Under the pieces are notes generated by a model, which did no database searches, was not told the DNA's origin, and saw only the letters and a program-made list of their open reading frames with translations. A stretch of 64,000 nucleotides of DNA from the NCBI GenBank assembly GCA_963752255.1, contig CAVVXT010000019.1, forward strand, positions 288,001-352,000. Reading direction: 5' to 3'. Shown piece by piece: positions 2,185 through 53,630 of this stretch (position 1 is the stretch's first letter; each line of letters starts with the position of its first letter). The stretch is from Nitrososphaeria archaeon (GTDB lineage Archaea; Thermoproteota; Nitrososphaeria; JACIWG01). The translations under genes were made by a program, and so were the position numbers.

Positions 2185-3624
2185 TTAACCCTTTACAACT
2201 CCAATCGGCGTGATTTTAGCGACCTTTGTTGCAATACCAACTTGATGGGAGACTTCTACTACCATATCAACGTCCTTGTAAGCTTCAGGAGCCTCCTCAC
2301 TGACTACTCTGATATCTGCGGCTTCTAGCAGTATTCCACGGTTCTCTAATTCCCTCTTGACATCGGAGCCACTTTTAGATCTTAATGCACCTGCTCTACT
2401 CATCATTCGACCAGCACCGTGGGCGGTGCTACCGAAACTTTTTTTCATGGACAGTTCGTTTCCGACTAGGACCCAGCTTGAAGTGCCCATGGAACCCGGT
2501 ATAAGAACAGGCTGGCCGAGATCTCGATATCTTTGAGGAACCTCAGGTCTGCCCCTTGGGAAAGCTCTTGTCGCGCCCTTGCGATGGACCAAGACTTTAA
2601 TCTTTTGACCATCTACATCGTGTTCTTCGGTCTTGGCGATGTTGTGGGCTACGTCGTAAATTAGTCTTAGTTCCCTTTCGTCTACGCCGAAGGTTTTTGA
2701 AAAAGCCCTGCGAACCCAGTGCGTAATCATCTGACGATTAGCCCAGGCAAAGTTCGCCGCAGCGGCCATGGCGCCAAGGTATCTTTCACCTTCAGGACTG
2801 CGGATTGGGACACTTGCGAGCTCACGATCAGGCAGCACAATGTTGTATCCTCTACAACACTGCTCCATCAGCCTCAAATAGTCGCTGCATACCTGATGAC
2901 CTAAACCACGACTGCCAGTGTGAACCCAAAGCATGACCTGTCCTGTAGAAGGTATACCAAAGACCTTCGCAACATTTTCGTCAAATATTCTGTTGACGAC
3001 GCCGATCTCTAGAAAATGATTACCGCTGCCGAGGCTGCCCAACTGAGGAGCACCACGTTGCTTAGCGTTTGGGCTGACCATGCTCGAATCAGCGGATTTC
3101 ATGTGCCCATTTTCTTCACAGAATTCCCTGTCCTCTGTAAAACCGTAGCCATTCACAACGGCCCAGTCAACCCCTTCGTCAAGCGCAGAGTTCAAGGAAC
3201 TCTGACTTAGTCTCAACTGACCCTTACTACCTAAACCGCTGGGAACATTGACAAACAATTCATGAACAAGATGTCTTAGCTTAGGGCGGACATCTTTTTC
3301 AAATAAAGGAGTGGAAATTAGTCTGACGCCACAGTTGATATCGTAACCAACTCCCCCGGGGGAAATAACCCCTTCATCGTAGCTTGTCGCTGCTACTCCC
3401 CCTATTGGAAAACCGTAGCCTTCGTGACCATCCGGCAGAACTATTGAAAACTTCTGTATTCCAGGTAGATGTGCAACATTCACCGCTTGACCTAACGTAC
3501 GATCTTCTGTCATCTTACGTAAAAGTTGCGAATTAGCGTATATTTTGACGGGTACCCTCATTCCCCCATCCTTTTGTATTTCATATTCTACTTCTGAAAC
3601 TTTATCAGGCGAATATTTTGACAT
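2185..3624 (-). CDS. rtcB: RNA-splicing ligase RtcB
   Basis: PDGHEGYGFPIGGV, GYDINCGVR, GSGNHF, HRKGATRA and HGAGR motifs; C-terminal VVKG. Confidence 0.97.
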   Translation of the reverse strand: MSKYSPDKVSEVEYEIQKDGGMRVPVKIYANSQLLRKMTEDRTLGQAVNVAHLPGIQKFSIVLPDGHEGYGFPIGGVAATSYDEGVISPGGVGYDINCGVRLISTPLFEKDVRPKLRHLVHELFVNVPSGLGSKGQLRLSQSSLNSALDEGVDWAVVNGYGFTEDREFCEENGHMKSADSSMVSPNAKQRGAPQLGSLGSGNHFLEIGVVNRIFDENVAKVFGIPSTGQVMLWVHTGSRGLGHQVCSDYLRLMEQCCRGYNIVLPDRELASVPIRSPEGERYLGAMAAAANFAWANRQMITHWVRRAFSKTFGVDERELRLIYDVAHNIAKTEEHDVDGQKIKVLVHRKGATRAFPRGRPEVPQRYRDLGQPVLIPGSMGTSSWVLVGNELSMKKSFGSTAHGAGRMMSRAGALRSKSGSDVKRELENRGILLEAADIRVVSEEAPEAYKDVDMVVEVSHQVGIATKVAKITPIGVVKG

Positions 3625-3879: not shown

Positions 3880-4611
3880 ATGAGGGTAAAACACTTTTTC
3901 CAATTGGAGATTCACATCATGGTGAAAATTATTGATGAGCCATCTTACAGAGAGAAAAAATTTGTGTTTAAGGATAGATTTCAAGCAGGTAAAATCTTGG
4001 CTGAAAAATTAGGGGAATATAAAAGCAAATCTGATGCCATCGTTCTCGCCGTGCCTGCCGGAGGTGTACCGGTAGGATACATCGTCGCCAAAAATCTTTC
4101 CATATCTTTTGACATTATCGTAGTAAGAAAGATACAGATTCCGTGGAATACTGAAGCCGGTTTCGGCGCTTTATCTTGGGACGGAGAAATCGTCTTCAAT
4201 GAACCCCTGCTCAGAAGCCTTAATTTGAGGAAAGATGAAATTGAAGATTTGGTCTCGAAGACCAAGAAAATAATTCTCGGGAGGCTTAAGAAGTTTAGGG
4301 GTGATAAGCCGATGCCTGATATTAAGGGTATAGATGTGATACTCGTAGATGATGGTCTAGCTTCTGGTTTCACAATGTTGGCTGCTGTAAAATCAGTTAA
4401 AAAAATGGGTGCAAAAAAAATAATTGTAGCTGTCCCTACATCATCTGTAAGCGCGATCAGACTTCTTAGATCAGAGGTAGATATGCTGGTTTCTCTAAAC
4501 GTAAGAAGTGTTCCTGCCTTTGCCGTCGGAGATGCCTACTTAGAATGGCATGATCTATCGGATGATGAAGTAAAAAAGATTCTGGATGGTAAAGAAGGAA
4601 CTTACTTCTAA
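3880..4611 (+). CDS. Type I phosphoribosyltransferase family protein
   Basis: FKDRFQAG, PAGGVPVG, and the PRPP-binding loop VILVDDGLASGFT. Confidence 0.9.
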   Translation: MRVKHFFQLEIHIMVKIIDEPSYREKKFVFKDRFQAGKILAEKLGEYKSKSDAIVLAVPAGGVPVGYIVAKNLSISFDIIVVRKIQIPWNTEAGFGALSWDGEIVFNEPLLRSLNLRKDEIEDLVSKTKKIILGRLKKFRGDKPMPDIKGIDVILVDDGLASGFTMLAAVKSVKKMGAKKIIVAVPTSSVSAIRLLRSEVDMLVSLNVRSVPAFAVGDAYLEWHDLSDDEVKKILDGKEGTYF

Positions 4612-4622
4612 ACAAATAAAGA

Positions 4623-5582
4623 ATGCCATTAAGGACAGAAAAAATGTGTCCATTTCCTGCACAATTGCTCAGGATAACAAGGAATATAAATCAAGACGTT
4701 GCAATCAATAACATTATGCAGTCGAACAGAAATGACATGACCGGTAGAGTCTGCATTATAACAGGCGGTACTTCTGGGATAGGCAAAGCAACAGCGTTGG
4801 GATTAGCGAAGTTAAACGTAACATTGGTTATCGTCGGAAAAGACAAAAAAAGAGGGGAATCAGCACTGGAAGATATTAGGTTAAGGAGCGGTAACAAGGA
4901 TGTTAATCTTATGTTAGCAGACTTTTCCTCACAGCAGTCGATTAGGCAGCTGGCACAAGATTTTAAAAGCAATTACAAGGGTTTGGACGTCCTTGTCAAC
5001 AACGTAGGCGTCTTTATGCTAAGACGTTCTCTTACGGTGGACGGAATCGAGAAAACCTTCGCAATTAATCACCTCGCTCCCTTCCTACTAACAAATCTCT
5101 TACTCGATCTACTCAAAAGCAGCGCTCCTTCTCGTATAGTAAATGTGGCGTCAGCATCCCATTATGGAGCGAAAATACATTTCGAAGACATCCAGGGAGA
5201 AAGAAGATACAACCTATTCGGAGCATATGGTCAATCGAAACTTGCCAATGTACTATTTACATATGAGCTTGCTAGTAGGCTTAGATCAACAGGTGTAACC
5301 GTGAATTGTCTTCATCCAGGCTTTGTAAGGACAAGCTTGGGTCGAGACAACGGTCCTCTGTTCCCCTTCTTCAAGATTGCAGGAATATTTGCTTCCAAAC
5401 CTGAAAAGGGGGCGCTGACGGTGGTGTATCTGGCATCCTCTCCAGAGGTTTCAGGAGTCACGGGAAAATATTTTACTAAAAGGAAGGAGGTAAGATCCTC
5501 TGAAGAGTCTTACAACATAGAAACCGCCAAACGTCTTTGGCAATTAAGCGAGGAACTTACAGGACTCCCTAAAACAAACTGA
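4623..5582 (+). CDS. Short-chain dehydrogenase/reductase (retinol dehydrogenase/WWOX-like)
   Basis: TGGTSGIG, NHLAPFLLT, YGQSK, LHPGFVRT, RLWQLSEELT. True start is probably downstream (about 4716 or 4737). Confidence 0.92.
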   Translation: MPLRTEKMCPFPAQLLRITRNINQDVAINNIMQSNRNDMTGRVCIITGGTSGIGKATALGLAKLNVTLVIVGKDKKRGESALEDIRLRSGNKDVNLMLADFSSQQSIRQLAQDFKSNYKGLDVLVNNVGVFMLRRSLTVDGIEKTFAINHLAPFLLTNLLLDLLKSSAPSRIVNVASASHYGAKIHFEDIQGERRYNLFGAYGQSKLANVLFTYELASRLRSTGVTVNCLHPGFVRTSLGRDNGPLFPFFKIAGIFASKPEKGALTVVYLASSPEVSGVTGKYFTKRKEVRSSEESYNIETAKRLWQLSEELTGLPKTN

Positions 5583-5861
5583 AAAATTATGGAAGACCAG
5601 AATGATTGAGTAGCTAACGTTAGTGGGTTTAGAAGTATTGATGAGATTAAATTTTTTCTTTGACAGTAGAAAACAATTCAAGGTTGATTGATTTCAAGGA
5701 TTAGGTTCGCCTTCAATAGAATCGCATCATTAATCGCATTTGATCCATAACGGCTCTTAAATCAGCCAACTTGACAAAGTTAAATGGCCAAGCCTTAAAC
5801 TTATCCCTATTAATTTAACCAAACATTTTGGTAATTCCCTTTGGTTTTAGTTAATTTAACT

Positions 5862-6140
5862 CTATTCTTCCATAACAATCGTTGTGAGAGTTGAACGGAT
5901 ACTCTTTAGCCCTCTGATCTTAGAACTTATAGTATCCTTTAATTTATCCATGGTGTCTGCTTTAAGCTTGACAATTACATCATATGTGCCGTAAATAGCA
6001 TAAGCTTCTTTTACCTCTTCTATCTTTTTAAGCTCTTTAACTATTTCCCTTTCAGAACCCAAATCCGCATTTATCAATACAAACGCCGTCGGCATTCCTA
6101 TCATTTTAAATATGAAATTGTTATATAAAACCTTTTCCAT
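5862..6140 (-). CDS. Lrp/AsnC ligand-binding (RAM) domain protein
   Basis: MPTAFVLIN...VKEAYAIYGTYDVIVK...IRSTLT. No HTH. Likely start near 6095. Confidence 0.9.
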   Translation of the reverse strand: MEKVLYNNFIFKMIGMPTAFVLINADLGSEREIVKELKKIEEVKEAYAIYGTYDVIVKLKADTMDKLKDTISSKIRGLKSIRSTLTTIVMEE

Positions 6141-6385
6141 AAAGATATGATAATATTTTTATAATATTTCAAAAAGAATTTAAATTTATACCTTAATCTG
6201 TAAAAAAAGATTATATCAAAAGTCCCCCACCTTATAATCGCCGAACGCTTCGATGGAACCCCTACAAATGGAGAAAGTTCCATCACCTTATGTCCGACCA
6301 TGTCAGATTAAGCGTTTACACTTGTAGAAAGCAAACTATTTCTGTATAACCTGTTACCGTCGAATCTAAAAGTTTTGGCAACAAA

Positions 6386-7525
6386 ATGTTTAACACCTTT
6401 AATATTTATCAAAAGATAGTTTATGGGAGAGCCTTGAACAATCGCGAGAGGACTATGGCAGTCTTCACCCACAGGAAAGCCGATCGTCTTATTTGGCAGC
6501 CTAGACTTCACCACTGGCATGAAGTTAACAAGGCTAGAGGCTCTCTGCCTAAGAAGTATAAGGATTGGGATATACTGCAAATTTATGACGACATAGGCGC
6601 CTCACCGAGATCCTATCACTATTTTAATAATGTAATCAGAACGGTTGAAGGTGACGGCGTAAGGGTCGAATTAAAGGAAGATATTGAATATGTTTACACT
6701 AAGTACATGACTGCAGAAGGGGATATTACTCAAATAGAAAAGAAGAACCTTTGGGGCACCAATAAGATGCGTATAAAGTATTTCTTGCAGACAACCGATG
6801 ATTTTAGAATTCTCGAATACATTCTAAAAAGACAACATTTCGAATTTGACGAAGAAGAATACGATAGAAATGATAGACTCCTAGGCGATAGATGCGAACC
6901 TATATTAAATCTGCCTCATGGATCGATACAGAGACTCTTTATCGAGTGCATGGGACTTGAGAGGGGGACAATAGCACTGTGGAAGACCCCCGAAAAAGTT
7001 GAAGAACTTCTGCGTACATTCGACGAAAACGACGATAAAAGATTCGAACTGATTAAGAGAACTCCATTTAAGATAATAAACTTCGTTGATAACATAGACG
7101 ATTCACTTGTTTCTCCTACATTACTAAAGAAATACATGTTGCCGTATTACCAGCGTAGAACACGAGAACTCCATCAGATGGGTAAGTATTCCACTTCCCA
7201 CTGGGATGGTAAGATTAAACACGTGCTACCTTTTGCTAAGGAAACCGGGCTAGACGGATTTGAATGCGTTCCACCTATTCCACAGGGTAGTGTCACTTTA
7301 GAAGAGCTTAGGGACGGCTTGGAAGGGATGATGCTGTCGGATGGAATTCCTGCCACCCATTTCATGCCCTATACGGGTGAAGAGGAACTTAAGAGGTTCA
7401 TGCAAAAATTACTAGACTTTTTTGCGCCAAATATTATCGTAGGGATATCAGATATGATGCCGCCTGATGGAAGTGTAGAAAGGCTAAGAATGGTCGGAAG
7501 AATAGTTGAAGAATACAAAATCTAG
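6386..7525 (+). CDS. Uroporphyrinogen decarboxylase / MtaA-CmuA methyltransferase-like protein
   Basis: DNID...SP...KKYMLPYY, HWDG and GISDMMP patterns typical of the URO-D/CIMS superfamily. Confidence 0.75.
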   Translation: MFNTFNIYQKIVYGRALNNRERTMAVFTHRKADRLIWQPRLHHWHEVNKARGSLPKKYKDWDILQIYDDIGASPRSYHYFNNVIRTVEGDGVRVELKEDIEYVYTKYMTAEGDITQIEKKNLWGTNKMRIKYFLQTTDDFRILEYILKRQHFEFDEEEYDRNDRLLGDRCEPILNLPHGSIQRLFIECMGLERGTIALWKTPEKVEELLRTFDENDDKRFELIKRTPFKIINFVDNIDDSLVSPTLLKKYMLPYYQRRTRELHQMGKYSTSHWDGKIKHVLPFAKETGLDGFECVPPIPQGSVTLEELRDGLEGMMLSDGIPATHFMPYTGEEELKRFMQKLLDFFAPNIIVGISDMMPPDGSVERLRMVGRIVEEYKI

Positions 7526-7546
7526 GAACTAGATATCAGAAGCTAT

Positions 7547-7921
7547 CTATTCCCTGACCTTCATAATAAGCCACTGTTCTTTTCCCTCTTTTGACTGAAA
7601 TCTGATTAAATTATAGGTTCCATTTAGGCGTTCCCCTTTTAAACTGAATTTGATGCGTTTTTCCAAATTTTCTATAAGAGTGTATGTTCCTCTATCCCAA
7701 ATCGTAACTTTACCTGCACCATACTGACCTTCAGGAATCACACCACTGAAATTCGCGTGCTCCAAAGAGTGGTCCTCCACCCTTAAGGCCAGCCTCTTTA
7801 CCCCATACTCTTGTGGAACACCCTTCGGAACAGCCCACGACTTTAAGACACCGTCCATTTCAAGCCTGAAGTCGAAATGGTGGGTAGTGGCCCAATGTTC
7901 CTGCACAACAAAAATAGGCAT
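7547..7921 (-). CDS. Stand-alone LigD-type DNA 3'-phosphoesterase (PE) domain protein
   Basis: FVVQEHWATTHHFDFRLEMDGVLKSWAVPKG, VEDH, YGAGKVTIWDRG. Confidence 0.93.
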   Translation of the reverse strand: MPIFVVQEHWATTHHFDFRLEMDGVLKSWAVPKGVPQEYGVKRLALRVEDHSLEHANFSGVIPEGQYGAGKVTIWDRGTYTLIENLEKRIKFSLKGERLNGTYNLIRFQSKEGKEQWLIMKVRE

Positions 7922-8153
7922 GTTAAAAATAGAGAGATGGCTATATAAGAACCTTACAGCAACAAATGGGTGACTTAAATACCTTAAATATATTCGTGAA
8001 AAGATTAAATAATAAAAATGTCTATTTAACGGCTAAGTGACATATGGACTTAAGAATAGATAAATATCCTCAGGGGCATGTTGTCCCTGTATTTTACTCT
8101 GGTAAAATGTTTGGAGAACTTTTCTTAGGGTAACAGTGTGCAGGTGTTTGAAT

Positions 8154-8843
8154 CTAAGGGCTGGCTAGGTAACTCTGGTTTAAGTCCCCATTGATTGAAT
8201 AGCCATTCTGCTCCCAATAACCTTTGAAGTCCGTATTATTGGAGACCTCTATTTTTGTGATCCACTTTACCCACTTATAGCCCCATTTGCCTTCCGCAAC
8301 GAGCTGAAATGGGAAACCTTTTTCAGGTGGTAAAGTAACGTTGTTCATCTTGTATGCGATCATAATGTTATTGCTGGTAATGTAGGCGATGGGCAAAGAA
8401 TCAGAATAGTTGTCGTAGCCGTAGAAAATGACTATCGTTGCACCTGGTTTTACACCTGCATCTGCTAAAAGATCTTTTATAAGGAAACCCTGCCAAAGTA
8501 TCGTGACACTCCATCCTTCCACACAGTTCAACGTAACAACTTTTTCATAGGATTTATACTTCGATATAACCTCATCGTATGTGAAAGTAAGGTTCTTGTC
8601 AACGAGACCCGTGACAACGAGTCTATAGGTACTTTTATTGATGTATTGGGGTCCATCGATGGAGACTTCTGGTTCATTGTTGATCGAGGAAAGCTTTTGA
8701 CCCTGGTAATCTGTTATCTCAGAAGTATTAAGTTTAGTTGTACTGCCCACAGTTGTATAGTAGCCCAAAATAGCCGCTGCGGCAACAACCACTATAATCA
8801 ATAAAATGAACGGGAGTCTCTTAACTGATACATTCCGCTGCAT
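8154..8843 (-). CDS. Sulfite oxidase/MsrP-like molybdopterin-binding oxidoreductase, N-terminally anchored
   Basis: TLNCVEGWS, GFPFQLV..GKWGYKWVKWI..IE, GYWEQNGY. Confidence 0.88.
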   Translation of the reverse strand: MQRNVSVKRLPFILLIIVVVAAAAILGYYTTVGSTTKLNTSEITDYQGQKLSSINNEPEVSIDGPQYINKSTYRLVVTGLVDKNLTFTYDEVISKYKSYEKVVTLNCVEGWSVTILWQGFLIKDLLADAGVKPGATIVIFYGYDNYSDSLPIAYITSNNIMIAYKMNNVTLPPEKGFPFQLVAEGKWGYKWVKWITKIEVSNNTDFKGYWEQNGYSINGDLNQSYLASP

Positions 8844-9170
8844 TTATAGGCGATAATATAGCAGTGTTATACTTAAGTATTATGAAAATTCAGTTTTCAT
8901 TAATTTTCTAACACTTCCCTTTTTGTTGGAAAATAAGAAGATGATATCGGAAAAAAATGCCAGTTACAGAACAATTCTAGAGTTTGTAAAACAAGGGATA
9001 CCAAATTAAAGACAAGATTTCGCTTAAACGTAAAAAAAAGACTAAACCTTATTACACTTTTTTTCAGCCACTTAACTAATTTACATTGTAAATACTGGAA
9101 AAAAAATAATCAGAACTAGTAGCTGTACAGTCCTATAGATAATGTTTATTCCAAGGAAGACTTTTGGTTA

Positions 9171-10328
9171 TTATTTTACGCCTTCGAATGTACGACCAGC
9201 TTGAGCAACTAACTTTTGAATTGGAAGTTTTTGGGGACATTTTGTTTCACACTGTCCACATTGTACACAGTTCTTTGCTCCATTTTGAGCAGAAACGATT
9301 CCGTTGTACTTCTTGATAACTTCTGCTTGCGCAGCGGAATCCCCACGTTTTCTTCCATGTTCATTAGACAAAGCGAATATTTGAGGAATATTAACACCTT
9401 GTGGACACGGCATACAATATCTGCACCCTGTACATCCTATAAAGCCGAACTCACGATATTTTTCCCGCACTTTCTCGATAATTCTAAGATCCTCCTGTGT
9501 CAACTTTCCTGGTCCCGAACGACTTGCACTTTTGACGTTTTCTATTACTTGCTCCATTGTGCTCATTCCACTTAGAACAACTGAAACTTCAGGTTGATTC
9601 CAAACCCATTGGAGAGCCCATTCTGCTGGTGTCCTTTTAACTTTAGAGTCATCCCATATCTTTTGAATTTCAGTTGGCGGCTTAAGAGCTAACATACCCC
9701 CTGCTATGGGTTCCATAATTACAGCCCCCAGTCCTTTAGAGGCGACATACTTTAGCCCCTTTGTTCCTGCTTGAAAGTCTGTGTCCATATAGTTGTACTG
9801 AAATTGACAGAACGTCCACTTGTTTGTACTATCGATTATTTCCTTTAAAACACTAAAATCATCGTGGAAACTGAATCCAAGGTAACGGATCTTTCCCTCT
9901 GAAATTGCCTTGTCGGTCCATTCGATTACATTTAGGTTTATCATCTTTGGCCAACGTTCTTTATTTAATCCATGCAGTAAGTAGAAGTCTATTTTTTCTG
10001 TCTCTAATTTTTTTAACTGCTCGTTAAGGTATTTATCTGTGTCTTCCTTGGAATTTAATAACCAAGTAGGAAGTTTTGTCGCTAATCTTACTTTCTCTCG
10101 ATAACCATCTTTTAGTGCTTTACCGACTAATATTTCGCTGTTACCACCATGATATGGATACGCCGTATCAATGTAATTTACTCCATGGTCGATAGCATAT
10201 CTTATCATTTTTATCGCTTCAGCTTCATCTATCTTGGAACTATCACCACCTACTGTTGGTAGTCTCATTGCGCCAAAACCAAGCGCTGAAACCTTCCAAT
10301 TAAGTTTACCAAAATTCCTATATTTCAT
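9171..10328 (-). CDS. Aldo/keto reductase with C-terminal 4Fe-4S domain
   Basis: LGFGAMRLP, IDTAYPY, CTGCRYCMPCP, CVQCGQCETKCP. Confidence 0.93.
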   Translation of the reverse strand: MKYRNFGKLNWKVSALGFGAMRLPTVGGDSSKIDEAEAIKMIRYAIDHGVNYIDTAYPYHGGNSEILVGKALKDGYREKVRLATKLPTWLLNSKEDTDKYLNEQLKKLETEKIDFYLLHGLNKERWPKMINLNVIEWTDKAISEGKIRYLGFSFHDDFSVLKEIIDSTNKWTFCQFQYNYMDTDFQAGTKGLKYVASKGLGAVIMEPIAGGMLALKPPTEIQKIWDDSKVKRTPAEWALQWVWNQPEVSVVLSGMSTMEQVIENVKSASRSGPGKLTQEDLRIIEKVREKYREFGFIGCTGCRYCMPCPQGVNIPQIFALSNEHGRKRGDSAAQAEVIKKYNGIVSAQNGAKNCVQCGQCETKCPQKLPIQKLVAQAGRTFEGVK

Positions 10329-10801
10329 ATTAATCCCAACGCATGGTGCACATTTGGAATAATATAATTATTTTAGATATGATCCCTTATCTTAATTATA
10401 GTAGGATAAAGACCATGAATGCAGGTAAATAATTCTAAGAGTAGTCTAGTCTTTTTTTGAATGTTTATCTTCTATGTACTGTTTCGACTCTTTGAGGCTT
10501 TTAAATCCTATGAAGCAATAAGGACAATACATTATTTTTAAGGGTAGTAAGGAGGATTTTAAAAAATATGATCTCTCATCTTTAATCAAGAAAAAATCAA
10601 TGTTCTATCTTGGCTAATAGATAATGCTTTCACTTACGACACTAAAAAGATGCAGAAAGTCTATTTTACGTGATGCCATCCATATTCTTCATAAATCTTT
10701 TTGCCTTTTTGGGCTGCGAGCTATTATTAAGCTTGGAAAAGACTGTCAAGTTTAAAAGATCACAAATAAACTAATTAAAGTCGTCAGGTAGACTCTACAA
10801 C

Positions 10802-13162
10802 GTGCAGATAGAAAGTTACGATTTATTTCTTGAAATAGACTTCAAAAACCTAAAGTTTGTAGGAAAAACGCTCATAAAACTTGAAACGGAGGGGGATGTA
10901 GTCCTAAACTCTCTTGGCCTTACTATCCTTAACGCCGGAACCAACACTAGGTCTTACCCTTTTAATCAAAGAGAAGAAGATCTAATAATTAAAACAGGGC
11001 CTTTCAATGGGACACTAGAAATTGGATACTCTGGTCAGATCCCTGATACACTAGTCGGAATCTACAGAGCGCCTTATGGGAGCACTTACATGATAACCAC
11101 ACAATTTGAAGCCGCACATGCGAGGAGAATGTTCCCGTGCTTAGATCATCCAGGTTATAAAGCCGAGTTTAAGCTAGCTGTGAAGATAGACAGAGAGCTG
11201 GATGCTATTTCGAACATGCCTGTCGAGTCGTCGGAAACAGAAGGTGATATGAAAACCGTCTCCTTCCAAAGGACACCGAAGATGTCGACGTACCTGCTCT
11301 ACTTAGGTATAGGAAAATTTGAGAAGATTAGTGACAGGATAGGCGACATCGAAATAATTGTGGCTACAACGCCTACTAAAGCAAGCAAGGGGGTGTTCGC
11401 ATTAGATGCCGCCAAGAAGTCTTTAGAATTCTACCAGACATACTTTGGTGTTCCATACCCTCTTCCAAAAATTCATCTAATAGCTGTACCTGAATTTGCC
11501 GCAGGTGCCATGGAGAACTGGGGCGCGGTAACTTTCAGAGAAACAGCACTTCTCGTTGACGAAAACAGCAGCTTCAAGACTAAAAAGAGAGTGGCCGAGG
11601 TTGTAGCCCACGAGCTTGCGCACCAATGGTTTGGAGACTTAGTGACCATGAAATGGTGGGACGATATTTGGCTGAACGAGAGCGTTGGAACATTTATGTG
11701 TTACAAGGCGATGGATGCCATCTACCCGAGTTGGAAGGTTTGGCAGGACTTCTTAAATGACGAAACTGCAGGTGCTTTTGCTAGGGACTGCCTAAAAAGC
11801 ACTCACCCCATAAAAGCATATATCCAAACTCCTAGTGAAATAGAGCAGATTTTCGACAGCATAAGTTACGGTAAAGGTGCAAGCATTCTTAGGATGATCG
11901 AAGCGTATATGGGACCCGATGACCTCATGAAAGGCATATCGAACTATCTTATGGAACACAGTTACTCTAACGCAGCTGGAGAAGATCTTTGGAATTCTCT
12001 TGAGAAAATATCGGGAAAGCCGATAAAGTCAATTATGAGCGAATGGATAGGAAAGCCTGGATATCCAATTGTAACCGCAGGAATTAGAGGAAACAGCTTA
12101 GTGCTAAAGCAGAATCGGTTTTTACTGATAAACGGGTCCAGAGAAGACGTTTGGAGAATACCAATTGATATGAAGATCAATGATAAAGAAAGAACTTTGC
12201 TCTTGGACAGTAAAGAGGAAGTTATCGAGGCTAAAAACTTGAAGTCCCTCAAGTTAAACGTTGACCAAACAGGTTTCTACAGAGTTTATTACGAGGAACT
12301 CTACGAAAAAGTATGGCAGAGTAACCTTTCAGCTTTTGAAAGGTGGGGGATAGCGTCCGATTCCCTGGCCTTCCTACTGGCTGGCAAGCTGTCTTTCAGC
12401 GACTACCTTAGCCTTGTGAAGAGATACTATAATGATCACGAATATCTACCGGTCCTCGAACTTTCTGATCAGCTTGCTTTCCTATACTCGATTGTTCCAT
12501 CCAAAGTTTCCGAAGTTTCAAGAAGGTTCCATAATTTACAGCTAGAATCCCTTCAGGAAAAGTCTGAAGAGAACAGTTCAATGTTATACGGCATTATAGC
12601 TGGAAGACTAGCTATGTTGGATGAAGACTACGCTAAAAAATTAGGTTCAAACTTCCACAGCTACGACAAGATAAAACCAGATATGAAAGACGCAGTCGTA
12701 ATAGCCTATGCTAGGGCAAACAGCGACCTTGAAGGTGTTGTAAAAAAGTACAGGGAGAGCGGTTCAGATGAAGAGAGAATACGACTTCTTAATTCTATGA
12801 TGCTCTTCAAGGAGCCTTCACTTGTTGCACTTTCGTTTGGATTAGCTCTCAGTGGCGAGGTGAAAAGACAGGACATAACGAGCATGATTTTAATGGCCAC
12901 AAGAAATCCAGATGCCAGAGACGTTGCCTGGATGTGGATGAAGATCAATGTACAAAAGCTCAGGAAACTATATGAAGGTACAGGTAGACTATCGCAGGTC
13001 TTACTTTCTACTATACCTATTCTTGGAATCGGTAAGGCTGATGAGGTTGAGAAATTCTTCAGAGAGAACAGAATACCTGAGGCTGGGAAGGGGATTGAAG
13101 CAGGTCTGGAGAAACTCAAAGTATACGACAGATTTGTTAAAAGCACCAATTTCGGCGATTAG
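10802..13162 (+). CDS. M1-family zinc aminopeptidase (tricorn-interacting factor F2/F3-like)
   Basis: GAMENWG, HELAHQWFG, WLNE, SYGKGAS. Confidence 0.95.
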   Translation: MQIESYDLFLEIDFKNLKFVGKTLIKLETEGDVVLNSLGLTILNAGTNTRSYPFNQREEDLIIKTGPFNGTLEIGYSGQIPDTLVGIYRAPYGSTYMITTQFEAAHARRMFPCLDHPGYKAEFKLAVKIDRELDAISNMPVESSETEGDMKTVSFQRTPKMSTYLLYLGIGKFEKISDRIGDIEIIVATTPTKASKGVFALDAAKKSLEFYQTYFGVPYPLPKIHLIAVPEFAAGAMENWGAVTFRETALLVDENSSFKTKKRVAEVVAHELAHQWFGDLVTMKWWDDIWLNESVGTFMCYKAMDAIYPSWKVWQDFLNDETAGAFARDCLKSTHPIKAYIQTPSEIEQIFDSISYGKGASILRMIEAYMGPDDLMKGISNYLMEHSYSNAAGEDLWNSLEKISGKPIKSIMSEWIGKPGYPIVTAGIRGNSLVLKQNRFLLINGSREDVWRIPIDMKINDKERTLLLDSKEEVIEAKNLKSLKLNVDQTGFYRVYYEELYEKVWQSNLSAFERWGIASDSLAFLLAGKLSFSDYLSLVKRYYNDHEYLPVLELSDQLAFLYSIVPSKVSEVSRRFHNLQLESLQEKSEENSSMLYGIIAGRLAMLDEDYAKKLGSNFHSYDKIKPDMKDAVVIAYARANSDLEGVVKKYRESGSDEERIRLLNSMMLFKEPSLVALSFGLALSGEVKRQDITSMILMATRNPDARDVAWMWMKINVQKLRKLYEGTGRLSQVLLSTIPILGIGKADEVEKFFRENRIPEAGKGIEAGLEKLKVYDRFVKSTNFGD

Positions 13163-46450: not shown

Positions 46451-47029
46451 ATGTTAGAAATCTTTATTAAACATGGACTAGAAATTAATTCTATGTCTGC
46501 AAGGCAAATATGGATTATGCGCGACTATCCAAAATGCACCGGCTGTCGAAGGTGTGAAATCGCGTGTTCCCTATACCATGAGAAGAAAATCTGGCCTGAA
46601 GCTTCTATGGTAAGAGTTTTCATGTTGGCTCCAGGTCTAGAATATCCGCACTTGTGCACTCAGTGCCACGATTATCCATGTGTGGAATCCTGTCCAACAG
46701 AACCTAAAGCGCTTTCCGTTGATGAAAAAACAGGCGCTGTTCTTGTCGATCGGAAACTTTGTATCAGCTGCATGAAATGTATTAAAGCGTGCCCTGGTCA
46801 CGTCCCATTCCTTCGCCCTAGTGATAACAAATCAACCATCTGCGATCTTTGCAACGGCGATCCTCAGTGTGTTAAGGTCTGCCAAGAAGCTAAGTATGAT
46901 GTCTTGAGAACAATACAATACGATAAAGGGAAAGGCGATGCGCTAATCTTTAAAGTTTATGCGAAAACACCTAAGGAAATAACGGAAGGGCTCTCCACCT
47001 TGATCTACGGGGAAAATTTTGAGGTGTGA
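46451..47029 (+). CDS. 4Fe-4S dicluster electron-transfer subunit (AOR partner)
   Basis: Four Cys clusters (CTGCRRCEIAC, CTQC...CP, CISCMKC...CP, CDLC...C). Confidence 0.9.
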   Translation: MLEIFIKHGLEINSMSARQIWIMRDYPKCTGCRRCEIACSLYHEKKIWPEASMVRVFMLAPGLEYPHLCTQCHDYPCVESCPTEPKALSVDEKTGAVLVDRKLCISCMKCIKACPGHVPFLRPSDNKSTICDLCNGDPQCVKVCQEAKYDVLRTIQYDKGKGDALIFKVYAKTPKEITEGLSTLIYGENFEV

Positions 47030-47032
47030 TAA

Positions 47033-48892
47033 ATGAAGGGATATGCTGGAAAGTTTGCAGAAATAAATCTTGACGATAAAAAGATTAAGGAAATTAAATT
47101 TGATGAGAGAACCCTAAGAAAATATATTGGCGGTAGAGGTTTGTCTGCTAAAGTCTTATGGGATAGGCTAGGGGAGAGATGGGAAGAGATTGACCCATTG
47201 GGTCCAGATAATATTTTAACACTCTTTACTGGTCCACTTACAGGATACTACCCCGGCGGCCGCCTTTGTGTTTCAGGGAAGTCCCCACAGAGCAATGGCA
47301 TTACCGGAAGCACTGTTGCAGGTGAATTTGCAGTCGATCTCAGATGCGCTGGATGGGACGGCCTAATTATATTAGGCGCTGCAGAAAAACCCTCCTACAT
47401 TTTGGTGAGAGATTCCTCAATTGAAATAAGGAACGCCAGTCATGTCTGGGGAAAGGACGGAAAAAAGGTTTCACTGACCCTGTCAAAGGAGGTTAGAGAA
47501 GAATGGAACAGGAAGTACCCTAGTCGAGAATGGAAAGAGCCTTCAATGGTGTACGTGGGACCAGCTGGACAGAACAAGACCAGAGTTGCTGCAGTGGAGT
47601 CAAAGTGGGCTCATGGAGCGGGATATGGCGGATACGGCGGTGTAATGGGGTCTAAGAATCTGGTCGCTGTTCTGGCAAGAGGAACCGGACCTTTGCCTGA
47701 CGTCTACGATCAACCAAAGGTCTTGGAGCTTCTCGACCAAGTTGTTAAAGAATGCATAAACAACGATAGCATGAGGAGGTGGGGCACAGGCGCAGCCGGA
47801 TTTTCTGTTGGAAGCACAACGAGTTCTGAGCCTGTAAGGAACTGGCAGGAGGAGTGGCACGATGAAAAATCTTATGGTGTAGACCAGTTTGAAAGTAGGG
47901 TTTGGGTAAAAAGGTACTGGGCTGACTTCGGGTGTCCGACATCCTGCGAAAAACTTTCAGTGGTCAGGACGGGAGAGTTCAAGGGTGCTATAACCGATAA
48001 CCCAGACTATGAGACGCAAGCCTACTGCGGACCAAACGTAGGTGTCTTTGTCCCAGAGGCGAGCGTCTACTTGAATTCGTGCCTGGAAGACCTTGGGTTC
48101 TGTGGAATACAGGCTGGTAATGTGCTAGGTTTCACAGGTGAACTCTACCAACGCGGTATACTTACAAAGGAAGAGTTGGGCGGTGTAGAACTTAAATGGG
48201 GTGACACCAAAGCGTTTGCAAAGGTTGCAGAAATGATCGCCTACCGTAAAGGTGTAGGCAATATACTTGCTGAAGGCACATATCGGGCAGCCATAAAATT
48301 AGGTAAGATGAAGGGGCAAGACCTGCTTAAATATGCTATCCAATGTAAGGGTATTTCTCTAGGTGCCCACGGCATCAGAAGTGGCCTCGATTACGTCCCC
48401 GTAATGGGGTATACGTGTGGCGCCCAGGGAGGAGATCACACCTCTGTGGCTTATCTTCCAGTAACCCATTCCGGCAGTGAGCACAGCACAATCCTGCAAG
48501 ACTCTGGCGTGTACTGCATGTTCAACGCGGGACCTATGACGCCACAGTTCCAGATAGATTTCCTGAACGCTGTCACGGGATTCAACATTACAGCTGATGA
48601 ATGGTATAACGATATGGCGCTATCAATTATACAGATCCAGAGAGCTGCGCTGCTGATCGGAGGGCCGGACGCTAAATGGGCTGGAATAGACGAAAACCCG
48701 CCAAGGTTCTATGAACCGCTGCCGTCAGGTCCACACAAAGGAAAAGTCACCGACATCAAAGAGGTGGAGGAAATGAAGCTTGAGTACTACAAGGTGGTTG
48801 GTTGGAATGAAAAGGGAGTTCCTACATCTGAAACTCTGAAAAAGCTGGGACTGGAGGACGTGGACAGAATCTTGTCGAAGAAGCTAAAATAG
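47033..48892 (+). CDS. aor: Tungsten-dependent aldehyde:ferredoxin oxidoreductase family protein
   Basis: MKGYAGK, YIGGRGL, KSPQS, GVMGSKNL, PDYET, GDH, GVPT..TLKKLGL. Confidence 0.92.
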   Translation: MKGYAGKFAEINLDDKKIKEIKFDERTLRKYIGGRGLSAKVLWDRLGERWEEIDPLGPDNILTLFTGPLTGYYPGGRLCVSGKSPQSNGITGSTVAGEFAVDLRCAGWDGLIILGAAEKPSYILVRDSSIEIRNASHVWGKDGKKVSLTLSKEVREEWNRKYPSREWKEPSMVYVGPAGQNKTRVAAVESKWAHGAGYGGYGGVMGSKNLVAVLARGTGPLPDVYDQPKVLELLDQVVKECINNDSMRRWGTGAAGFSVGSTTSSEPVRNWQEEWHDEKSYGVDQFESRVWVKRYWADFGCPTSCEKLSVVRTGEFKGAITDNPDYETQAYCGPNVGVFVPEASVYLNSCLEDLGFCGIQAGNVLGFTGELYQRGILTKEELGGVELKWGDTKAFAKVAEMIAYRKGVGNILAEGTYRAAIKLGKMKGQDLLKYAIQCKGISLGAHGIRSGLDYVPVMGYTCGAQGGDHTSVAYLPVTHSGSEHSTILQDSGVYCMFNAGPMTPQFQIDFLNAVTGFNITADEWYNDMALSIIQIQRAALLIGGPDAKWAGIDENPPRFYEPLPSGPHKGKVTDIKEVEEMKLEYYKVVGWNEKGVPTSETLKKLGLEDVDRILSKKLK

Positions 48893-50504: not shown

Positions 50505-50726
50505 CCGTTTGAAGAAAGCTTTCGCTATCTTCGAATCCGTTTATAAAAAACAATCCATGTTGAACAAGTAGAGCTGCTTAATTGATCAAAATCTGTGGCA
50601 TGCTTTTTGACTTGTACTTGACGTTACATCAGTGATTTACTGTTTAGGTCCTCATCCTCTTGATTATTATGTAGATAGAACTCCAAGTGTCAATGGAATT
50701 TCAAGGTTATTACCGTTTCTATTAAC

Positions 50727-50788
50727 GGTTTTTATGCATCTGTTGTGCATGGGTTAATGGTGATGTTGGATATTGCGTTCATTGTGCA
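50727..50788 (+). repeat. Left terminal inverted repeat
   Basis: Three TT(G/A)TGCA units; about 49/63 aligned columns identical to the reverse complement of 53455-53515 (manual alignment). Confidence 0.85.
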
Positions 50789-51006
50789 AAACATTCATGT
50801 ATAATTTACATTGTAAACTTAGCTTTTTTGATGTGGGGGTGCTACATAGCTTGATTGACTTTGTAAATCTACTTAACTTTACAAGTTTACAGATTTACAG
50901 TCGCTTTGCTTCATGGTATGATAACGATATACATATAGACCTTGACTGTATTAGTTAACGACGTACAACGACGTTAACGCCGTAACGTTAACGATGTATA
51001 AACGGT

Positions 51007-51083
51007 TGCGACAGTCGGGATTTGAACCCGAGTCTCCTGCCCTGGCAAAGGTGGCGCATTTGACCTTACTATGCTACTGTCGC
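51007..51083 (-). tRNA. tRNA-Gly(GCC)-like gene with aberrant anticodon arm
   Basis: GCGACAG/CTGTCGC acceptor stem plus A, GCAT/ATGC D-stem, TCGGG-TTCAAAT-CCCGA T-arm, 4-nt variable loop. Anticodon arm is 19 nt (CCACCTTTGCCAGGGCAGG) and poorly paired. Confidence 0.7.
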
Positions 51084-51106
51084 AACCTTTTCATTCTTAA
51101 CCATGA

Positions 51107-51121
51107 GATAAAAACCTTTCC
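51107..51121 (-). promoter_or_regulatory. BRE-TATA promoter of the tRNA-like gene
   Basis: Minus strand GGAAAGGTTTTTATC ending 24 nt upstream of tRNA position 1. Confidence 0.6.
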
Positions 51122-51184
51122 ATAATAATGATGAGACAAAAACCCTCAATTGCATTTAAATACCTGTAATTTAATTATTTTATA

Positions 51185-51355
51185 TTATTCTAACCTTTTA
51201 ACTTTCATAATTTTTCTGCTATCTTGGGTGATTATTTCCCAATCTAATACGTCTCCTATTTTTAAGTTCATTTCCTTTGCGATCTTTTCTGGTATAGTTG
51301 TTCTCATCGAAGGCGATATACTGCTTGCCTTTGCTATGGTTGATTTTTCTCCCAT
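51185..51355 (-). CDS. AbrB/MazE/SpoVT-family DNA-binding protein (56 aa, not in ORF track)
   Basis: MGEKSTIAKASSISPSMRTTIPEKIAKEMNLKIGDVLDWEIITQDSRKIMKVKRLE*. Confidence 0.85.
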   Translation of the reverse strand: MGEKSTIAKASSISPSMRTTIPEKIAKEMNLKIGDVLDWEIITQDSRKIMKVKRLE

Positions 51356-51357
51356 GT

Positions 51358-51450
51358 TATACCTTATCTACCTATATGTTTATATACTTTATCTACCTAT
51401 ATTACCTATACATATATATACCTATTATACCTATAGGTATGGTAGGTAGA
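51358..51450. promoter_or_regulatory. Divergent promoter region with multiple TACCTAT-like repeats
   Basis: TATCTACCTATA twice, further TACCTAT copies, and palindrome ATACCTATAGGTAT between the AbrB and transposase starts. Confidence 0.65.
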
Positions 51451-51455
51451 TTAAT

Positions 51456-52591
51456 ATGATGGATATGCGACCTAACAGAGCCCTACAGATATTAGCTCAA
51501 GAAGATAACGTAAAAAGAGTAGACGCTAACACATACAAAGTTAAATCACAATCGGGGAAAGGTATTTATCAAGTAATAAGAGTAGGTGAAGAATGGAAAT
51601 GCGAATGTGCAGATTACATCAAAAGGGGAATTGCATGCAAGCACATATATGCAGTTACTTTTTCACAGGCTCTAAGACAACAGGTTAGCTCAACAGAAAA
51701 GCTGGGAATAGAGCTTACAGAAAAACCCGATAACTGCATTTACTGTGACTCAGGAAATGTAGTCAAAAGGGGATATGCTTATGAGAAAGGAAAGAAGGCT
51801 CAGCGTTTCTGGTGTAAAGATTGCAATAAGACCTTTGTGCTGAATTACGGATTTAGGGGAATGAAGAACGATCCTAAGGTAATTACTGTGGCTTTAGATG
51901 CCTATTTTAGAGAAATGAGCCTTAGGGATGTCAGAGATCATCTGATACAATTTTACGGGGGTTAAAGTGCATTATGTAACAATTTTAAGATGGATTTCCA
52001 AATACACTAAGATCATAGGAGATTATGTTGATGGATTCGAACCTGAGGTAAGCGACACTTGGCACGTAGATGAAATGATGATCGACGTTGAAGGAAAGAA
52101 GCAATGGCTCTGGAACGTCATGGACGATGACACACGCTTTCTTTTAGCAGAGCAGGATAAGCAGGAAAAGGGATGTGAGAAGTGCAAGGATACCTCTGCA
52201 TGACGCACAAGATAGAGCTGGGATAAGACTGAGATATGTGGTAACTGATGGATTAAAAGCCTATCCTGATGCAATAACGAAGGAATTTTATACTGTGGCT
52301 AATCCAAAAACCAAGCACGTGAGATTACCGAGTATAAGGGAAAGACCAAACAACAATATAATTGAAAGACTACATGGAACAATAAGAGAGAGAAATAAGG
52401 TTCAAAGAGGATTAAAGGAAGGGGCATCAACCAACATAGCTGAGGGACAGAGGATATTCTACAATTTCATAAGAGGACACATGGGAATAGACGAAGAAAA
52501 GACACCAGCGGAAAAAGCGGGAATAAGACTCAAATTGGAAGGAAACAAATGGATGGAACTAATAAAAAAGGCGACCGCAACACAATTTTAA
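51456..52591 (+). CDS. IS6/IS240-like DDE transposase with N-terminal SWIM and Zn-ribbon; frameshifts at about 51960 and 52155
   Basis: CEC...CKH (SWIM), CIYC...CKDC, SLRDV..HL...TILRWI (HTH), WHVDE, VTDG, NNIIERLHGTIRER, YNFIRGH, TPAE. Confidence 0.9.
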
Positions 52592-52605
52592 CAAGTGGTT
52601 CTCAT

Positions 52606-53277
52606 CTATTGTTCTTGATTCTTGGTGAGTAACTGCGTTCTTCTTTTCCTTAAACTAATTCCCAAAGCGATTGAGCTTAATATTATGGCTACGACCGCCA
52701 GAATCGTGCTAAGTTGTGTGAATGAATTCATAAGCAAAGAGCCTATTGAGGGTTGAGATTCTGGGCTAATGAAAGTAGGTCTGAAAGTTGCCCAAACATC
52801 GCTTGAATTTACTTTCCCATTCTTTAGTTGTTCTTCGATATGCACGATTGGACTAAACCATCCGAGCCTTGCTTGTCCCTCACTGAGACCTACATCCTTA
52901 TCAAAGACCCTAATAGGCGGCATCGTTGTGCTGTACCCACTACCAATCACTGAAAGTTTTACATCTTGGGGTATCGGGGGGGTGCGATATAAGGCAGAGG
53001 GAGTGGAAATGTCAAGCAGAATGGACGTGACTCGTGTTTCAACAACATCAGTCCCAAAGGACTTCACAGTGAATGAAATCGGAATCGTGTAGAATTCACC
53101 AGTAACAAATGTTACGGGGCAATCAAAATTAAATTCGTAAACAGCCCCATTATTACTTGTTACATCAGATACAGTAGTACTCCAACCAGCTTGGGTCGCA
53201 TATGAACTACTCGGTAATAGAAACAACAATAATACAACGCATATAATTATGGAATAACCAATAGGACGAGTCATCAT
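52606..53277 (-). CDS. Hypothetical exported protein with signal peptide and C-terminal TM anchor (transposon cargo)
   Basis: N-terminal hydrophobic signal, S/T-rich beta region, C-terminal TM followed by RKRR. Confidence 0.75.
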   Translation of the reverse strand: MMTRPIGYSIIICVVLLLFLLPSSSYATQAGWSTTVSDVTSNNGAVYEFNFDCPVTFVTGEFYTIPISFTVKSFGTDVVETRVTSILLDISTPSALYRTPPIPQDVKLSVIGSGYSTTMPPIRVFDKDVGLSEGQARLGWFSPIVHIEEQLKNGKVNSSDVWATFRPTFISPESQPSIGSLLMNSFTQLSTILAVVAIILSSIALGISLRKRRTQLLTKNQEQ

Positions 53278-53454
53278 TTTAAACTAAAAAGCCTAAACTT
53301 ATATATAAAGATATACATAAATATAAAATGATAATTTTTAAGAAGAATCAATATTATCAAAATCAAGTCAAAAAATAAAAAACAAGAGCACACGATTTAT
53401 CAATATGACTGATATTCATAGGTCGTATAAGACTTGTCATAACCTTTTGAACCA

Positions 53455-53515
53455 TGCACAACAACGCAACACCAACATTTTCCTAAACCCTATGCACAAT
53501 GGATGCACAAGAACC
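53455..53515 (-). repeat. Right terminal inverted repeat
   Basis: Reverse complement GGTTCTTGTGCATCCATTGTGCATAGGG...GTTGTGCA. Confidence 0.85.
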
Positions 53516-53630
53516 CTATTAACTGTTATAGTTACACTTTGGCCTACTGAAAGTATGTAAGCCAATAAGTAAACAGTTGTTTTCTTTTAAATAGTCAATA
53601 GTTAAATAGAAACTTCCCTTAACTGAATAT

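Follow-up and report, generated by a model that had tools for sequence, protein, structure and literature searches.

The stretch under study is a 64-kb window (the whole length of DNA that was analysed) from the draft genome of a Nitrososphaeria archaeon (G000; 2.1 Mb in 19 contigs). Its sole tRNA match, which is also its sole Rfam match, is a minus-strand gene resembling tRNA-Gly(GCC), hereafter the look-alike, which lies inside an IS6-like transposon and has an aberrant anticodon arm. We used ARAGORN and the Rfam model RF00005 run with Infernal (gathering score 29) for tRNA detection. ARAGORN places a tRNA-Gly(gcc) at 51004–51084 on the minus strand, and RF00005 matches 51007–51083 with 48.5 bits over the full model. 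Contigs of the host genome are cited as C3, C7 and C14, loci carry L numbers and other genomes carry other G numbers. The gene and its immediate signals are as follows.

51007–51083, minus strand: tRNA-Gly(GCC)-like gene, with G1 at 51083 and the discriminator A at 51007 (ARAGORN, Rfam and arm counts)
51036–51054, minus strand: aberrant anticodon arm of 19 nt, with GCC at 51046–51044 (ARAGORN drawing and two-base-deletion test)
51000–51091, no strand: extended inverted repeat made of the acceptor stem and its flanks, with arms at 51000–51015 and 51076–51091
51107–51120, minus strand: B recognition element (BRE)/TATA-like promoter, GAAAGG TTTTTATC, ending 23 nt before G1

The tRNA-like gene and its carrier transposon

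Outside its anticodon arm, the look-alike is that of the original prediction, which described a tRNA-Gly-type gene with perfect acceptor, D and T stems. The acceptor stem is Watson–Crick paired at 7/7 positions, or eight if a T–A extension is counted (ARAGORN drawing and a count from the gene ends), the D stem at 4/4 and the T stem at 5/5, with a TTCAAAT T loop and a discriminator A. By eye, the elbow bases T8, A14, G18, G19, T54, T55, C56 and A58 are present, in what we take to be the standard tRNA numbering. Glycine identity is specified by G1–C72, C2–G71, G3–C70, A73, C35 and C36, and all of these bases are found in the sequence. The acceptor helix also runs into the flanks of the gene: the predicted 12-bp inverted repeat proves to be the core of two 16-nt arms that are 94% complementary (repeat search).

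The anticodon arm departs from the canonical 17 nt, in which a stem of 5 bp closes a loop of 7 nt. It is 19 nt long, with two extra bases and, as had been claimed, A·A and C·C mismatches around a TTGCCAG loop; drawn with a 6-bp stem, its successive pairs are C–G, C–G, A·A, C·C, C–G and T+G. An alternative pairing gives a loop of 8 or 9 nt, and Infernal leaves 15 nt unaligned in this region, compared with 13 in the model. All 171 possible deletions of two bases from the arm were tried, and none restores a stem paired at 5/5 positions around a 7-nt loop, the closest reaching 4/5; single indel errors therefore cannot explain the arm, and more than one base change is needed to normalize it, as anticipated. 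Because its anticodon arm is not canonical, the gene cannot be a normal decoder.

Upstream of the gene, GAAAGG (51120–51115) and TTTTTATC (51114–51107) on the minus strand form what we presume, from the BRE/TATA consensus, to be a promoter. The announced distance to G1 was 24 nt and we count 23. The region resembles those before the host's own tRNA genes, which are also preceded by A/T-rich boxes at a comparable distance. An identical 19-mer that includes the box occurs in the window (51103–51121) and at G000:C7:61716–61734, where it lies about 28 nt before an unrelated 60-aa open reading frame (ORF). Judged by its sequence, the element is a plausible archaeal promoter for the look-alike.

The carrier of the gene is bounded as follows, and its other components are listed with it.

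50719–50726, no strand: left target-site duplication, CTATTAAC, identical to 53516–53523
50727–53515, plus strand: IS6-like transposon of 2,789 bp, with imperfect inverted ends and an exact 8-bp target duplication
50727–50788, plus strand: left terminal inverted repeat, starting GGTTTTTATGCATC (BLAST and end-pattern search)
53455–53515, minus strand: right terminal inverted repeat, starting GGTTCTTGTGCATC on the minus strand (BLAST and end-pattern search)
53516–53523, no strand: right target-site duplication, CTATTAAC, identical to 50719–50726
51456–52591, plus strand: IS6-like DDE transposase with a SWIM/Zn-ribbon N-terminus, in three frames (Pfam and NCBIfam)
51185–51355, minus strand: small AbrB/MazE-fold ORF of 56 aa (Pfam MazE_antitoxin, 6.6e-06)
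51358–51454, no strand: TACCTAT-type repeats, a possible operator, between the small ORF and the transposase gene (repeat search)
52606–53277, minus strand: cargo ORF of 223 aa assigned to no family, with a signal peptide and a C-terminal membrane helix by eye

The inverted ends and the 8-bp direct repeat bear out the description of the gene as transposon-borne. When the left flank was compared by BLAST with the reverse-complemented right flank, the two ends, both starting with GGTT, were identical at 49 of 63 positions (E value 8e-07). Three sites in the host genome match the end pattern, namely the two ends in the window and one end on C7, with 0 control matches. The transposase gene is not intact: it carries two +1 frame breaks, each due to one extra base, a fifth G near 51954–51958 (TAC GGGGG TTAAA) and a G at 52150 between GCA and AGC. 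Its pieces are 47, 48 and 63% identical to intact relatives and contain no other stops (tblastn). They match PF13610 and NF033587 below the curated cut-offs because the gene is split, while intact relatives score from 2e-20 to 3e-23 on PF13610. The two breaks may not be real.

This raises the question of whether the odd anticodon arm is itself an artefact of a draft, metagenome-type assembly. The 19 contigs, the two transposase breaks (each an additional G, in one case within a run of Gs) and the TTT and GGG runs in the arm would all suit such an origin. However, removing one or two bases never gives a canonical arm, at least one substitution being needed in addition, and analogous look-alikes occur in independent assemblies of other organisms (see below), so that we consider an error in the sequence or its assembly to be very improbable.

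The small AbrB/MazE-fold ORF lies 101 nt upstream of the look-alike on the same strand and is divergent from the transposase gene. Its counterpart in a second insertion-sequence (IS) copy, on C7, shares 47.5% identity with it over 40 aa, and a similar ORF is found at L148. Repeats comparable to the TACCTAT-type repeats occupy the same position in the C7 copy and in the transposons at L144 and L116. This second IS6-like copy encodes an intact transposase of 370 aa (about 40% identity) and the same small ORF, and its right end (C7:46298–46460) is 90% identical to 53354–53515 of the window; no recognizable left end was found for it. It should be noted that the C7 copy (2500–4530 of L082, G000:C7:42000–52000) has two successive right ends, the inner of which corresponds to the right inverted repeat of the window at 90%, with a GGTTCTGTTAACTT-type end 66 nt farther out.

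The 223-aa cargo ORF has no Pfam match, and a paralogue is located at C3:165213–165866 (79% nucleotide identity). In the vicinity of the paralogue (L081, G000:C3:158000–172000, 7194–10968) are a DUF5677 ORF and a short tyrosine integrase (219 aa) whose gene directly adjoins tRNA-Cys; this region is probably an integrated element.

Comparison with host tRNA genes and related genomes

The host has 46 tRNA genes according to ARAGORN, which lists a triplet anticodon for all 46, and 44 matches according to Infernal. Four are glycine genes: one CCC, one TCC, a canonical GCC at C14:91666–91744 and the gene in the window, which is an extra copy. The window gene is thus not the only tRNA-Gly(GCC) of its host, and the circumstance under which the original prediction was to be abandoned does not apply. 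The canonical gene belongs to an Ala/Gly/Phe cluster on C14 that is common to the relatives G008 and G002. The window gene is 68% identical to it and finds its best host match in Gly-CCC (73%); the background among all host tRNA pairs has a mean of 60% (s.d. 7.5).

No orthologue was found among 61 relatives, in which a BLAST search with the window gene matched 19 genomes and, outside its own genome, gave only matches of up to 62 nt to other tRNAs. Similarly, the 12 genomes matched among 401 of the class gave only partial matches to other tRNAs (BLAST). The exact D-arm and anticodon-arm 19-mers had 0 matches in viral contigs, and a gapped D-arm/T-arm pattern had 0 in metagenome contigs, where the D-arm 19-mer found five chance matches, none of which is a tRNA.

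The insertion site can be compared with that of the same-genus genome G001, in which genes for a DeoC-type aldolase (96% amino-acid identity) and an alcohol dehydrogenase (95%) adjoin with a 322-bp spacer. In the window, the two are 3,093 bp apart, and the spacer shares nothing with that of G001. The syntenic site of G001 contains neither a tRNA gene nor a transposon.

These comparisons bear on two origins proposed in the original prediction, a chimera formed by recombination in the anticodon loop, with halves from different tRNAs, and a decoy integration site, and on the related possibility of an attL/attR-type hybrid left by an integrase-driven element. Such an origin could be imagined from the paralogue of the cargo ORF near a tyrosine integrase beside tRNA-Cys on C3, and tRNA genes are the usual targets of integrated elements in Thaumarchaeota, at least in the portion of the published survey consulted (PMC6563490). 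Yet the two acceptor halves of the look-alike pair at 7/7 positions and at four further positions in the flanks, including an A6–T67 pair in which the gene differs from the host tRNA-Gly, and this co-adaptation would not be expected if they came from different tRNAs. Apart from generic T-arm matches, the genome holds no second copy of at least 15 nt of either half. The sister-species site is without a tRNA, the boundaries are those of the transposon with its target duplication, and no integrase was found within the window transposon by profile matches. We therefore set these origins aside, an integration scar or chimera being the least probable of the explanations considered here.

tRNA-like genes in related transposons

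The transposase family is present in 182 of the 401 genomes of the class (E ≤ 1e-20), a class that includes ammonia oxidizers, since amoA, amoC and amoB adjoin L144. The window transposase has no close relative, its best match being 48% identical in these 401 genomes and 44% in 401 genomes of the phylum. A search for related loci with this single protein found none, and one with a two-sequence alignment gave four loci, none with a tRNA-like gene beyond the one already known. In all, about 65 transposase loci were screened for tRNAs (30, 29, three new ones, two and the window); at least four are duplicates, leaving about 61 distinct loci. ARAGORN was run on batches of 30, 29, four and five loci, Rfam at the gathering score on 20 of the first 30 loci and by E-value on nine larger stretches, and a T-loop motif scan served as a further screen. 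A tRNA or tRNA-like gene lies between verified transposon ends at five loci.

Window: ends of about 63 nt, 78% alike, target duplication CTATTAAC; look-alike of Gly-GCC type, 19-nt arm with two mismatches; cargo, the 223-aa membrane-type ORF
L144 (G191): 4,110 bp, 66-nt ends 98% alike, target duplication CGATTCCA; look-alike of Gly-UCC type (Rfam, 40 bits), 8-nt anticodon loop CTTCCGAA, one D-stem mismatch; other cargo, an intact transposase, a DNA methylase and a ThaI-type endonuclease
L116 (G379): ends seen; look-alike of 69 nt, perfect acceptor stem and T arm, scrambled middle, 37 nt in between (45 in the window)
L160 (G749, another family of the phylum): about 3.8 kb, ends 83% alike over 35 nt, target duplication ATTATTAA; look-alike with a 6-nt loop, ATGGGC, on a perfect 5-bp stem, and a poor D stem (ARAGORN only); other cargo, a methylase and a second ORF; intact transposase
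L146 (G127): 4,509 bp, perfect 51-nt ends, target duplication GCAAAAAG; tRNA-Thr(UGU) gene, 51 bits, normal anticodon arm, acceptor stem 7/7 and T stem 5/5 (ARAGORN drawing)

The original prediction proposed to look for the same RNA beside homologous transposases: four other IS6-like transposons carry a tRNA or tRNA-like gene, and none of the searches found an exact or near-identical copy. An IS6-type design (8-bp duplication and ends beginning with GG) is seen in the window and at L144, L146 and L160. Stem pairs were tallied inward from the gene ends and not on the MAFFT alignment, in which two of the five genes are misaligned. In the look-alikes of the window, L144, L160 and L116, the acceptor stem is Watson–Crick paired at 7/7 positions and the T stem at 5/5, with a canonical T loop, a discriminator A and a T–A pair at 49–65. 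The anticodon regions of the same four genes show four different defects: a mismatched 19-nt arm, an 8-nt loop, a 6-nt loop and a scrambled middle. If detection bias is ignored and some 41% of the molecule is assigned to the acceptor and T arms, the chance that at least 12 visible defects in four genes all miss these arms is about 0.002. In the fifth gene, the tRNA-Thr of L146, the variable arm measures 23 nt and is possibly an intron.

A quick maximum-likelihood tree of 59 transposases, including rows from the unpublished genomes G131, G230, G282 and G326, places the window in a clade of nine rows (Shimodaira–Hasegawa-like approximate likelihood-ratio test, SH-aLRT, 100), where it pairs with L144 (SH-aLRT 99). 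These sister transposases both accompany a Gly-type look-alike. Neither look-alike resembles any tRNA of its own host; they are therefore not recent local captures and travel with the transposon. In all five transposons a small ORF of the same orientation precedes the tRNA or tRNA-like gene, at a distance of 13–125 nt. Those of L144 and L160 show a weak likeness (BLASTP, 2e-04, 29% over 62 aa), that of L116 shows no likeness to the other ORFs preceding look-alikes, and the Pfam/Atlas matches of that of L160 are below threshold, a winged helix being a lead only. Upstream of the transposase, relatives have nothing in common but the small ORF, and cargo turnover is fast.

Several candidates were discarded. 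The tRNA-Thr calls by ARAGORN at L116 (with a 545-nt intron, its 5′ half being the inverted end of the transposon) and at L106/L147 have no Infernal support. A Glu tRNA at L087 and a Gln tRNA at L161 are apparently normal genes of their hosts, located just beyond the ends of the transposon. The screen of L159 showed no tRNA-like gene. The T–A pair at 49–65, which occurs in one of 45 parsed host tRNAs, namely the window look-alike, lost weight as a family mark when the same T arm was met in tRNA-Glu of the class.

Some side observations concern these loci. The L144 transposon (G191:C84, 1128–5237) is directly beside the amoA/amoC/amoB genes (5393–7949) of an ammonia oxidizer, and a truncated tRNA-like match (36.4 bits, model positions 7–64) lies outside the transposon, at 559–613. 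In 61 relatives of G191, no other copies of the left part of L144 were found except one solo end. Beside the L116 element, L145 (G379:C1) contains extra end copies at 3013–3080, 4026–4083 and 4094–4144, which are solo or nested.

With the relatives at hand, we may wonder whether the window look-alike still decodes, acting as an odd tRNA-Gly for GGC/GGU or as a quadruplet reader that rescues the +1-shifted transposase. The 8- or 9-nt loop of the alternative pairing would suit this, as would the 8-nt loop of L144, which ARAGORN reads with a four-base anticodon, 'tccg'. Both transposase breaks would need a +1 shift, and the first (TAC GGG GGT TAA) would be bypassed if GGTT were read as one step. 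The +1 frameshift suppressors sufD, SufB2 and SufJ, derived from tRNA-Gly or tRNA-Pro, do have an enlarged anticodon loop, a feature shared by L144 and possibly by the window; their anticodon stem is perfect, whereas that of the window has two adjacent mismatches, which are not known to be a feature of such suppressors. In addition, a glycine codon is absent from the second break (GCA G AGC), each break consists of one surplus G, the L144 transposase is intact and needs no suppressor, and the L160 loop has 6 nt, not 8. Self-suppression was rejected; no matching four-base site explains both breaks. Decoding of any kind appears quite improbable.

A different role would be that of a decoy, protecting the element or its host by sequestering or inhibiting an anticodon nuclease or PIN-type toxin, whether this belongs to the host or to a competing element. 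Such a role would fit the defence-type cargo of L144 and L160, which includes restriction-modification genes, and the PIN-domain ORF that ends 125 nt before the tRNA-Thr inside the L146 transposon (G127:C2, 5228–6074). The window look-alike itself occupies the place where a VapC-type toxin would follow an AbrB/MazE-fold ORF. Some phage-encoded tRNAs are known to have altered anticodon loops that escape host anticodon nucleases; as in the window, these are tRNA-type genes on a mobile element, distinct from the host copy, that differ precisely in the anticodon region. Phage tRNAs, however, keep a 7-nt loop and decode, and their carrier is a virus and not a small DDE transposon; the window arm, by contrast, is longer by two bases and mismatched at two stem positions, and its relatives have 6- or 8-nt loops. 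The window transposon encodes no nuclease partner, the AbrB-fold ORF is regular in the IS family even where no look-alike follows it, and four different anticodon-region defects do not suggest a single nuclease target. We regard a decoy function as quite improbable.

Possible role of the transposon-borne RNA

Among the readings of the original prediction was a non-translating tRNA-like RNA, and this has been strengthened by the three further transposon-borne genes, whose acceptor and T arms are intact and whose anticodon regions are abnormal. Our preferred reading, which we hold tentatively and at a little less than even confidence, is that the look-alike specifies a tRNA-like RNA that does not decode and that the transposon carries as cargo. 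It would be one of a recurring type retained for the acceptor/T-arm half, made and processed like a tRNA and likely to be a processing or stabilizing module beside a small regulatory ORF. A tRNA-like gene would recur in this transposase family with the acceptor/T-arm half kept and the anticodon region free to break. Transcription of the look-alike would start at its own BRE/TATA element or continue into it from the small ORF that lies 101 nt upstream, and its RNA would fold into the tRNA L-shape. RNase P may then cleave its 5′ end, the 3′ end being trimmed and CCA added. The RNA would act through its shape, not by reading codons, and would most likely set the end of the small-ORF transcript and leave a stable tRNA-like RNA. 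In the window copy this module may no longer be in use, because the transposase is interrupted twice.

A broader proposition, of which we are more doubtful, is that IS6-like cargo transposons of Nitrososphaeria-type archaea carry a tRNA-derived RNA as a working part, the decoding end having been given up in several ways while the acceptor/T-arm half is under selection; host tRNA-processing enzymes would be used on the transposon's own transcripts, or the RNA would act as a decoy.

The main competing account is a plain cargo pseudogene: a working tRNA-Gly was picked up, lost its anticodon arm by mutation and is decaying with the transposase, without any function. The window transposase is indeed interrupted twice, the inverted ends are 78% alike compared with 98–100% in relatives, none of our searches found a homologue of the window gene, and cargo upstream of the transposase turns over fast, relatives being similar only in the small ORF. 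Moreover, with 46 genes in 2.1 Mb, about 4% of random 2-kb cargo would be expected to contain a tRNA, and five of about 61 distinct loci is not far above chance. Ordinary tRNA pseudogenes are likewise redundant copies with a defect that abolishes standard decoding. Unlike them, the window gene has defects confined to one arm, in a pattern that recurs in separate transposons of other genomes. At least three changes all fall within 19 of the 77 nt, for which the chance is about 0.015 with three changes and 0.004 with four if these are spread evenly. The transposase pieces, 47–63% identical to intact relatives, have no further stops, and the element is therefore not long dead. Finally, the same pattern is seen in three other transposons, in two of which (L144 and L160) the transposase is intact and the target duplication exact. 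Decay without function is in our view unlikely, although it is the most serious of the alternatives.

Several observations nevertheless weigh against a recurrent, functional tRNA-like RNA as transposon cargo. A look-alike is found in only three of the nine rows of the transposase clade and not in L148, L149, L151, L127, L132 or L138 (L127 and L138 being loci of unpublished genomes), and those of L116 and L160 are missed by Infernal at E ≤ 0.1. The window and L144 look-alikes are 65% alike, which lies within the background for unrelated tRNAs (mean 60%, s.d. 7.5), and lie on opposite strands relative to the transposase, so that common descent is not established. The T arm with T–A at 49–65 belongs to tRNA-Glu at 17 of 18 examined loci of other genomes of the class, the 18th being an intron-bearing tRNA by eye, and the pattern matched 117 of 241 genomes. 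The window transposase is broken, and its transposon has no counterpart of the small ORF found ahead of the look-alike at L144 and at L160. The genome, viral and metagenome searches gave no close homologue of the window gene, and hence none for covariation. Lastly, the tools detect only look-alikes with good arms, which biases the sample towards an 'intact top half'.

Our preferred reading, a processed but non-decoding RNA, has parallels in tRNA-like processing signals such as mascRNA at the 3′ end of MALAT1, plant mitochondrial t-elements and mitochondrial tRNA punctuation. RNase P, RNase Z and the CCA enzyme recognize the acceptor/T-arm half and the elbow. As in mascRNA and t-elements, this half and the elbow are kept in all four look-alikes, and the element lies just 3′ of a same-strand ORF in all five transposons. 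Those systems are eukaryotic or organellar, whereas the processing proposed here is putative and the window copy has its own promoter-like element.

DDE insertion sequences are usually viewed as a transposase and its ends, and archaeal IS6-like elements in particular are presented as units of one or two genes (PMC6563490, PMC6807381). In the consulted portion of a study of the archaeal IS6/IS26 branch, the DDE transposase has a zinc finger at its N-terminus, the inverted repeats are long and start with GG, and the target duplications are of 8 bp (PMC6807381); the window transposon shares these features (NF033587, PF13610). The elements described there are of about 0.8–1.5 kb with the transposase only (PMC6807381), whereas those reported here are of 2.2–5 kb and contain an AbrB-fold ORF, cargo and a tRNA-like gene. 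Likewise, the part consulted of a survey of integrated elements in Thaumarchaeota presents IS-like transposons as one- or two-gene units and tRNA genes only as integration targets (PMC6563490). In a term search of the text available for each source, the word tRNA occurs 0 times in the IS6/IS26 paper (PMC6807381) and in a survey of archaeal IS (PMC13343696). A full-text search, which extended to neither supplements nor subscription journals, found no literature on tRNA-like genes in IS6-type elements.

What these transposons imply depends on whether the RNA works. IS6-like elements move tRNA-derived genes between distant archaeal lineages, and several of these genes keep the tRNA shape and not the decoding end. 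If functional, they would give a transposon a novel means of tapping into the RNA processing of its host or of escaping defences directed at tRNAs, and if a working part, the RNA would be an undescribed non-coding RNA component of a DDE transposon. If non-functional, the window gene would be a clean, datable example of the death of a redundant tRNA gene, anticodon arm first. In either case it serves as a warning for annotation, as ARAGORN and Rfam both call it a tRNA-Gly.

Finally, it should be noted that the genes upstream of the insertion site, at 46451–48892, include a 4Fe–4S ferredoxin-type ORF and an aldehyde:ferredoxin oxidoreductase; these belong to ordinary metabolism and are common to the sister genome as far as the two were compared.

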